Source: a virus (lineage: Duplodnaviria > Heunggongvirae > Uroviricota > Caudoviricetes). Taken from it: a stretch of DNA of 64,000 nt. The stretch lies in IMG/VR virus record IMGVR_UViG_3300029711_000004; one strand, 5' to 3'. The translations under genes and the position numbers were made by a program. Position 1 is the first letter of the stretch; each line of letters starts with the position of its first letter. The notes beneath the pieces were generated by a model that did not search any database, had not been told where the DNA came from, and worked only from the letters and a program-made list of their open reading frames with translations. Positions 30,130 to 30,216 of this stretch are shown piece after piece.

Positions 30130-30216
30130 TGGCGGAGAGTAATGGAATCGAACCATCATCGCTTGCGCAATGGGACGGTTTTCAAGACCGCTTGAGCACC
30201 ATGCTCCCTACTCTCC
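30130..30216 (-). tRNA. Type II tRNA-like gene, anticodon UGA (tRNA-Ser-like), atypical D-arm
   Basis: GGAGAGT...CGGTCTTGAAAACCG...long variable arm...GGTTCGATTCC...ACTCTCCGCCA. Confidence 0.55.

Follow-up and report, generated by a model that had tools for sequence, protein, structure and literature searches.

We report that the ban-operon tRNA cluster of phage P7 includes a fourth gene, probably a functional phage tRNA-Ser(UGA) whose cloverleaf departs from the canonical form. In its likely architecture, an 8-bp acceptor stem is stacked on a 4-bp T stem (12 bp in total), and the molecule has a two-nucleotide linker, a D hairpin resembling that of tRNA-Sec, a normal anticodon arm, and a 6-bp variable arm with a GNRA cap. 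This predicted 8/4 architecture is shown by covariation for the P7-type tRNA-Ser family.

The stretch of DNA analysed here (the window; 64,000 nucleotides) is, by sequence match, phage P7 and not P1: the 783 bases around the tRNA-Ser have 100% identity to Enterobacteria phage P7 (AF503408 / NC_050152). ARAGORN predicts four tRNA genes, each on the minus strand of the window (Table 1), and agrees to the exact coordinates and strand with a preliminary description of this DNA, which had claimed a class II tRNA gene with anticodon UGA as the fourth of the ban-operon cluster; the discriminator G, the encoded CCA, and the long variable arm listed there can all be read in the sequence. The worry that tRNA predictors might score the locus as a pseudogene is not borne out, given the ARAGORN call and the annotation of an identical sequence as tRNA-Ser in RefSeq. 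The P7 record annotates three tRNAs in the ban operon and has no feature between tRNA-Thr and terB; tRNA-Ser is missing from it, though sister genomes already annotate the gene, and what the call itself adds is one more tRNA, the fourth, for the annotation of P7.

Among other P1-like phages, with which a comparison had been proposed, D6 (NC_050154, 7145-7231) carries the same tRNA-Ser at the same site, between tRNA-Thr and terB/tciA. The D6 gene is identical to that of P7 at 86/87 positions, and the change A12C creates a C.U mismatch and costs one D-stem pair; the D6 record reads [quoted passage not shown]. RefSeq E. coli plasmids show the same split, with the P7-identical sequence annotated by PGAP as tRNA-Ser and the D6-type allele as tRNA-OTHER. 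For the D6-like plasmid pYU39_89, Asn, Thr, Ser, and Met tRNAs have been reported (PMC6799933). Among the papers examined, our literature searches found no description of the fold of a P1-like or T5 serine tRNA, and the 8/4 fold is not mentioned in the records of the D6 and RefSeq plasmid tRNA-Ser or in the related papers examined.

The covariance models of Rfam treat the four tRNAs of the window unequally. The general tRNA model scores the Asn, Thr, and Ile(CAU) tRNAs at 65-75 bits, and at its gathering threshold this model (RF00005) does not report the P7 tRNA-Ser. At relaxed thresholds, the best Rfam match of the P7 tRNA-Ser is tRNA-Sec (RF01852; E = 4e-8 for the 851 nt searched), with a score of 46.6 bits, below the gathering score of 47. 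The signal nevertheless exceeds chance, and the fold of the P7 sequence has a z-score of -2.97 relative to shuffled sequences. The putative 8/4 fold would explain why the predictors disagree: ARAGORN forces a 7/5 cloverleaf, tRNAscan-SE returns "OTHER" for the D6 type, and the Rfam tRNA model stays below threshold.

Table 1. Features of the tRNA-Ser locus and other features of the window (positions count from the first letter of the window; nt, position within the tRNA)
Feature	Position	Strand	Basis or remarks
tRNA-Ser(tga)	30130-30216	-	ARAGORN; 87 nt including encoded CCA
Acceptor stem of tRNA-Ser	5' strand 30209-30216 (GGAGAGUA, nt 1-8), pairing with 30134-30141 (UACUCUCC, nt 76-83)	-	eighth pair A8-U76
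Compact D hairpin of tRNA-Ser	30194-30206 (nt 11-23)	-	stem GAGC/GCUC, optional A15-U19; loop with G17 G18
Anticodon arm of tRNA-Ser	30175-30191 (nt 26-42)	-	stem GCGGU/ACCGU, loop CUUGAAA
Anticodon UGA	30184-30182	-	ARAGORN and sequence
Variable arm of tRNA-Ser	30157-30172 (nt 45-60)	-	6-bp stem CAUUGC/GCGAUG, tetraloop GCAA
T arm of tRNA-Ser	30142-30156 (nt 61-75)	-	4-bp stem AUGG/CCAU, loop UUCGAUU
Discriminator G and CCA end	30133 and 30132-30130	-	sequence
tRNA-Thr(UGU)	30663-30738	-	ARAGORN, Rfam, and P7 record; upstream of tRNA-Ser
tRNA-Asn(GUU)	30741-30816	-	ARAGORN, Rfam, and P7 record; upstream of tRNA-Ser
tRNA with anticodon CAU, annotated tRNA-Ile (ileX-like)	29083-29158	-	downstream of tRNA-Ser, just before ban
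Bivalent C1-controlled operator Op(ban)	31474-31501		P7 annotation, moved over from the P7 record with an offset of +26879 from locus L001; at the operon promoter
P7/D6 common segment carrying tRNA-Ser	30033-30341		pairwise blastn; replaced by the upl region in P1
Terminator-like hairpin	31289-31308	-	8 pairs followed by a T run; between Op(ban) and tRNA-Asn
23-nt inverted repeat	30358-30380 / 30435-30457		96% complementary, 54-nt spacer; between tRNA-Thr and tRNA-Ser
123-aa ORF	30304-30675	+	TTG start
terB/tciA	29433-29867	-
Partial Rfam STnc100 match	29905-30020	-	43 bits, gathering score 47; model positions 31-147 of 206
sok antitoxin RNA	46981-47155	-	Rfam, full length, above gathering score
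STnc490	49308-49431	+	Rfam, full length, above gathering score
C4 antisense RNA	51325-51410	-	Rfam, full length, above gathering score
a1/b1 target of C4 antisense RNA	51479-51531	-	Rfam, full length, above gathering score

The P7 record gives the gene order on the minus strand of the window as tRNA-Asn, tRNA-Thr, terB, two small ORFs, tRNA-Ile, and ban, and states that Op(ban) controls expression of the tRNAs and ban. We propose that relief of C1 repression at the ban promoter would lead to transcription of tRNA-Ser together with tRNA-Asn, tRNA-Thr, terB, tRNA-Ile, and ban. Given the terminator-like hairpin before the tRNAs and the inverted repeat between tRNA-Thr and tRNA-Ser, we only infer this co-transcription; a promoter scan of 28900-31700 returned no promoter-like site on the tRNA strand, and a dedicated tRNA-Ser promoter is therefore unsupported. 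The tRNA with anticodon CAU is called Met(cat) by ARAGORN, as opposed to the ileX-type tRNA-Ile of the P1 and P7 records; in tRNA-Ile of the ileX type, the CAU anticodon is modified and reads AUA.

After transcription, host tRNA-processing enzymes would excise the tRNA-Ser; host SerRS would charge it with serine by way of the long variable arm, G73, and the G2-C71/A3-U70 pairs; and EF-Tu would deliver it, since the acceptor/T branch keeps the standard 12 bp. These features agree with the requirements of SerRS and EF-Tu. The charged tRNA would read UCN codons, UCA among them, and so supplement the decoding of codons that are abundant in P7. In the window, 48 long ORFs use UCA, ACA, and AUA at 13.0, 15.2, and 11.4 per 1000 codons, frequencies that we take to be roughly twice the E. 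coli K-12 codon-table values. Three of the four phage tRNAs, namely Ser(UGA), Thr(UGU), and Ile(CAU), have the anticodons for these codons. The tRNA-Ser therefore likely serves to decode the UCA/UCN codons frequent in P7 ORFs, an assignment that is correlative.

The main role could instead lie in anti-defence, in that the phage gene would replace a host tRNA-Ser hit by an anticodon nuclease or another tRNA-directed defence, or would escape such an attack because its 8/4 body is a poor substrate. Unrelated phage groups, virulent as well as temperate, have retained the 8/4 body, which offers a lead in this direction, and the tRNA cluster lies beside colicin/tellurite-resistance-like genes. We regard such a role as quite improbable: the anticodon loop and inner stem are the same as in host serT, so the best documented escape route, namely changes to the loop, is unused; the 8/4 form is also present in bacterial assemblies of several phyla; and we know of no serine-specific anticodon nuclease.

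The decoding role assumes a tRNA body that differs from the ordinary serine cloverleaf, and the evidence for this body comes from covariation and computed fold energies. A pattern scan of IMG/VR gave 120 loci with about 80 distinct sequences. For 59 distinct purine-8 relatives, aligned as A1, pairs were counted under the two rival cloverleaves, 8/4 and 7/5. At position 8, which is U in canonical tRNAs, members of the family have a purine, and their D region is very short. In the P7 gene, U76 is position 65 in standard numbering, and the 8:65 pair (alignment columns 8:83) is AU in 48, GC in 10, and something else in 1 of the 59 sequences, with 10 double changes and 0 single-sided changes. The ten sequences with the G-C form fall into nine clusters at 85% identity; the switch between A-U and G-C at 8:65 must have occurred more than once, because two of the G-C clusters (3 sequences) have an A-U sequence as their nearest relative. 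All four pairs of the D stem have changed on both sides, with counts ranging from 6 to 31 cells, and covariation extends to four of the five pairs in the anticodon stem; the GG in the D loop is at least 90% conserved across the family. Overall, the 8/4 model leaves 95.1% of cells paired, compared with 41-53% when the partners are slid by 1-3 columns.

The competing cloverleaf is the one drawn by ARAGORN: an ordinary 7/5 tRNA-Ser in which A8 is unpaired, a G.U pair closes a 5-bp T stem, and the D stem is a poor 3-bp helix. It is not without merit, as bases 49 and 65 are able to pair in 55/59 relatives; the 7/5 reading gives T5-like and T4-like members the canonical linkers of two nucleotides at 8-9 and one nucleotide at 26; and one relative (L117) has A8 opposite C65 together with a 5-bp T stem. 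The substitution pattern makes it very improbable, however. Base 8 is never U among the 59 purine-8 relatives, and it goes from A to G exactly when base 65 goes from U to C. The rival 49:65 pair is GU in 40, GC in 9, AU in 6, and something else in 4 sequences, where pairing is impossible, and it shows no double changes; base 49 covaries instead with its variable-stem partner, the first base of that stem (columns 47:67; CG in 48 and UA in 7 of the 59 sequences). Regular 5-bp T stems do occur in the same IMG/VR scan, in sequences with U8. The computed energies point the same way: the P7 8/4 fold has -32.9 kcal/mol (-33.3 with a fifth D pair) and the 7/5 fold -29.5 kcal/mol, making 8/4 the more stable by 3.4 kcal/mol. 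We therefore reject the ARAGORN drawing with its 3-bp D stem on covariation. The unconstrained minimum of RNAfold (-33.6 kcal/mol) is a non-cloverleaf structure lying 0.3-0.7 kcal/mol below 8/4, and is uninformative by itself.

With the 8/4 cloverleaf in place, several readings of the preliminary description need revision in part. Its perfect acceptor pairing stands, and its length of 7 bp does not, for the stem has eight pairs, the eighth being A8-U76. It had called the anticodon arm identical to that of serT: this holds for the loop CUUGAAA and the four inner pairs, and fails at the outer pair, which is G.U in P7 and C-G in serT. It was also right that a canonical serine D-arm cannot form; the region folds nonetheless, as a hairpin GAGC(A)/(U)GCUC of 4-5 bp with a loop of 3-5 nt that includes GG. 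A canonical serT-like tRNA combines U8 with a 7-bp acceptor stem, a T stem of 5 bp, and a D-arm whose stem of 3-4 bp carries a large loop; P7 has a paired A8 and a compact D hairpin. The anticodon stem is 5 bp long, A facing C at the sixth position, and the variable arm directly adjoins the T stem without a linker.

The preliminary description had left it open whether the gene is a functional unusual tRNA-Ser or a decaying copy. In the latter case, the locus would be a tRNA-Ser relic in the ban leader with no translational role. Some observations lean that way: the general tRNA model of Rfam misses the gene at its threshold; in the D6-type copy, one D-stem pair is mismatched and the annotation reads tRNA-OTHER or "AA not called"; and the segment is absent from P1. 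The failure of tRNAscan-SE to assign an isotype to the D6-type variant, with its C.U in the D stem, counts against function, and since P1 lacks the gene, it is dispensable for a P1-type life cycle. Against decay, every one of the 23 modelled pairs is standard in P7. The stems of relatives with 88% identity or more to P7 show 20 changes, of which 17 keep pairing, full compensatory ones included: at one and the same variable-stem pair, C-G became U-A twice and A-U once; elsewhere, G.U became A-U or C-G, and UG became UA or CG within the variable stem of P1-like relatives. Pairing is lost in three cases: A12C of D6, a change in the variable stem, and a U-U where the anticodon stem closes its loop. 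Such a pattern is consistent with selection on the predicted RNA structure. The odd features moreover covary across T5-like, rV5-like, T4-like, Acinetobacter-phage, and metagenomic members, and the T5 GenBank record reports, as a statement of its depositor, that an amber-anticodon derivative of the homologous tRNA-Ser1 is an effective suppressor. Taken together, covarying family membership and the conserved pairing speak for the functional alternative, and we consider a decaying copy extremely improbable.

A tRNA-Sec or other recoding tRNA (a selenocysteine-type, stop-codon, or missense suppressor) has a negligible probability and is rejected on anticodon and branch length. In its favour are the best Rfam match, tRNA-Sec with 46.6 bits, and the Sec-like D hairpin. 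Against it, the anticodon is not UCA, and the UGA that is present reads UCN codons for serine; the branch has 12 bp and not the 13 bp of bacterial tRNA-Sec; the score lies under the gathering threshold; and such matches are the known false positives behind the discovery of 8/4 tRNAs (PMC5389517).

The functional 8/4 reading also places the P7 gene among described molecules. A class of (8/4) tRNA-Ser was reported by Mukai et al. in 2017 (PMC5389517), in phages, proteobacteria, and Clostridia; its members first surfaced as false positives of tRNA-Sec searches. In E. coli, allo-tRNAs of the 8/4 and 9/3 types are processed and charged, serylation by SerRS included, and then accepted by EF-Tu and the ribosome; for T5 tRNA-Ser1, its record implies the same. 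By its sequence, the P7 tRNA-Ser belongs to this known class. [quoted passage not shown] The paper describes for the class an 8/4-split 12-bp branch, a long variable arm, G73, and a Sec-like D stem-loop, all in common with P7, and phage-borne members that, like P7, have serine anticodons and were found as near-threshold matches of a tRNA-Sec model (PMC5389517). The phage examples come from metagenomes, not from P1-like, T5-like, or rV5-like coliphages, and the narrower allo-tRNA group is described with a longer (6-bp) anticodon stem and Y20 (PMC5389517); the anticodon stem of P7 has 5 bp.

A further parallel in form is tRNA-Ser1(UGA) of phage T5 (T5t08; L257 8846-8935), which shares with P7 an 8-bp acceptor stem (GGAAGGUA/UACCUUCC), the T stem AUGG/CCAU, a compact D hairpin, and the anticodon UGA. 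It differs in having only 71% identity, discriminator U, and a longer loop in the variable arm, and T5, unlike P7, is a virulent phage with a near-complete tRNA set. E. coli serT has in common with P7 the anticodon UGA, the anticodon loop and four stem pairs, G1-C72, G2-C71, A3-U70, G73, CCA, and a long variable arm; it departs from P7 in that base 8 is U, the branch is 7/5, and the D loop is large. Bacterial tRNA-Sec (RF01852) has the 8-bp acceptor, compact D hairpin, and long variable arm of the P7 tRNA, and differs from it in branch length (13 bp, 8/5), in the D hairpin (6-bp stem, 4-nt loop), and in the anticodon, which is UCA.

A covariance model (R1) was built from 42 relatives whose identity to P7 stays below 80%, with P1-like and rV5-like sequences left out; its members come from T5-like, T4-like Klebsiella, Acinetobacter, and metagenomic phages. 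R1 matches the P7 tRNA-Ser over its full length with 89.1 bits (E about 1e-21) and T5 tRNA-Ser1(UGA) with 77.8 bits, all pairs being standard in both; the tRNA-Ser of T4 scores 41.7 bits and E. coli serT 39.7 bits. The T5 serine tRNAs with anticodons GGA and GCU reach 24-28 bits with this model. More distant homologues annotated tRNA-Ser occur in rV5-like phages (about 90% identical to P7), in T5-like and T4-like Klebsiella phages (78% and 74%), and in Acinetobacter phages (75%); the SSU5-like phage-plasmid Cyrano has a 96% identical tRNA-Ser in a tight contiguous Asn-Thr-Ser cluster. Bacterial genome assemblies from several phyla contribute at least about 20 true 8/4 members among the matches listed; most of the listed genome-contig matches are canonical tRNA-Ser of Actinomycetota aligned one base out of register, and were discarded. 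The T4 tRNA-Ser, considered as an experimentally studied relative, was set aside as well, being canonical with U8 and a 7/5 branch.

The 8/4 serine tRNA reported for metagenomic phages thus appears also in the studied coliphages P7, D6, T5, and rV5-like phages. What is new here is the explicit assignment, from sequence comparison, of P1-like, T5-like, and rV5-like serine tRNAs to the 8/4 form, and the difference between the P1 and P7 cassettes. As well-studied coliphages and hundreds of enterobacterial phage-plasmids carry the 8/4 tRNA-Ser, genetics to probe the use of the 8/4 shape should be readily available.

The cassette difference emerges when P7 is aligned by blastn, in pairs, with P1, D6, and Cyrano and the alignments are read with the P1 and D6 annotations. 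P7 matches P1 from 30342 on (plp-like DNA, tRNA-Thr, and tRNA-Asn) and again at 29993-30032; between these matches, P1 has upl where P7 and D6 have tRNA-Ser, and D6 is collinear with P7 throughout the compared region. The three P1 tRNAs named in the preliminary description agree with this, since upl occupies the syntenic spot in P1 and a fourth tRNA is absent there. The 309-nt segment is matched in 571 plasmid records and in 620/5426 complete E. coli genomes, part of which match only the flank, and the 90 nt after tRNA-Ser are common to P7 and the rV5-like phages. Judged from these alignments, the tRNA-Ser region is a mosaic, with which both loss in P1 and gain in P7/D6 are compatible. The 3' flank at 30041-30111 has about 96% identity to a 70-nt stretch that separates the antiterminator Q and holin genes of lambdoid prophages in E. 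coli chromosomes, including that of a K-12 strain; at about 83% identity, this flank also follows the tRNA-Ser of rV5-like phages.

A broader proposal, which we rate as rather unlikely, is that the 8/4 body would be a distinguishing trait of coliphage tRNA-Ser(UGA), adaptive and passed on by horizontal exchange, in T5-like, rV5-like, Jiaodavirus, P1-like, and SSU5-like elements. Such a body might escape a host activity against canonical tRNA-Ser or alter the dependence on processing or modification, and P7 and D6 would then have gained or kept a cassette that P1 swapped for upl.

Further RNA-like and coding features were noted around the cluster and in related phages (Table 1). The site of the terminator-like hairpin corresponds to the "dicF-like region" of the P1 record, and the 23-nt inverted repeat gives rise to spurious matches to microRNA families on both strands. 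The 123-aa ORF matches residues 4-93 of P1 Plp at 97% identity, with different termini; it is unannotated in the P7 record, overlaps tRNA-Thr in antisense, contains the inverted repeat, and is a doubtful gene. The partial STnc100 match lies in the leader just upstream of terB/tciA. In rV5-like phages, a 99-nt tRNA-like gene follows about 100 nt downstream of the 8/4 tRNA-Ser, annotated with a four-base anticodon call as "tRNA-???(atcc)" in phage slur16 (L006 489-587) and as tRNA-Lys, an inconsistent isotype, in phage LL12 (L005 1690-1788). Elsewhere in the window, Rfam finds full-length matches above the gathering score to sok antitoxin RNA, STnc490, C4 antisense RNA, and the a1/b1 target of the latter.
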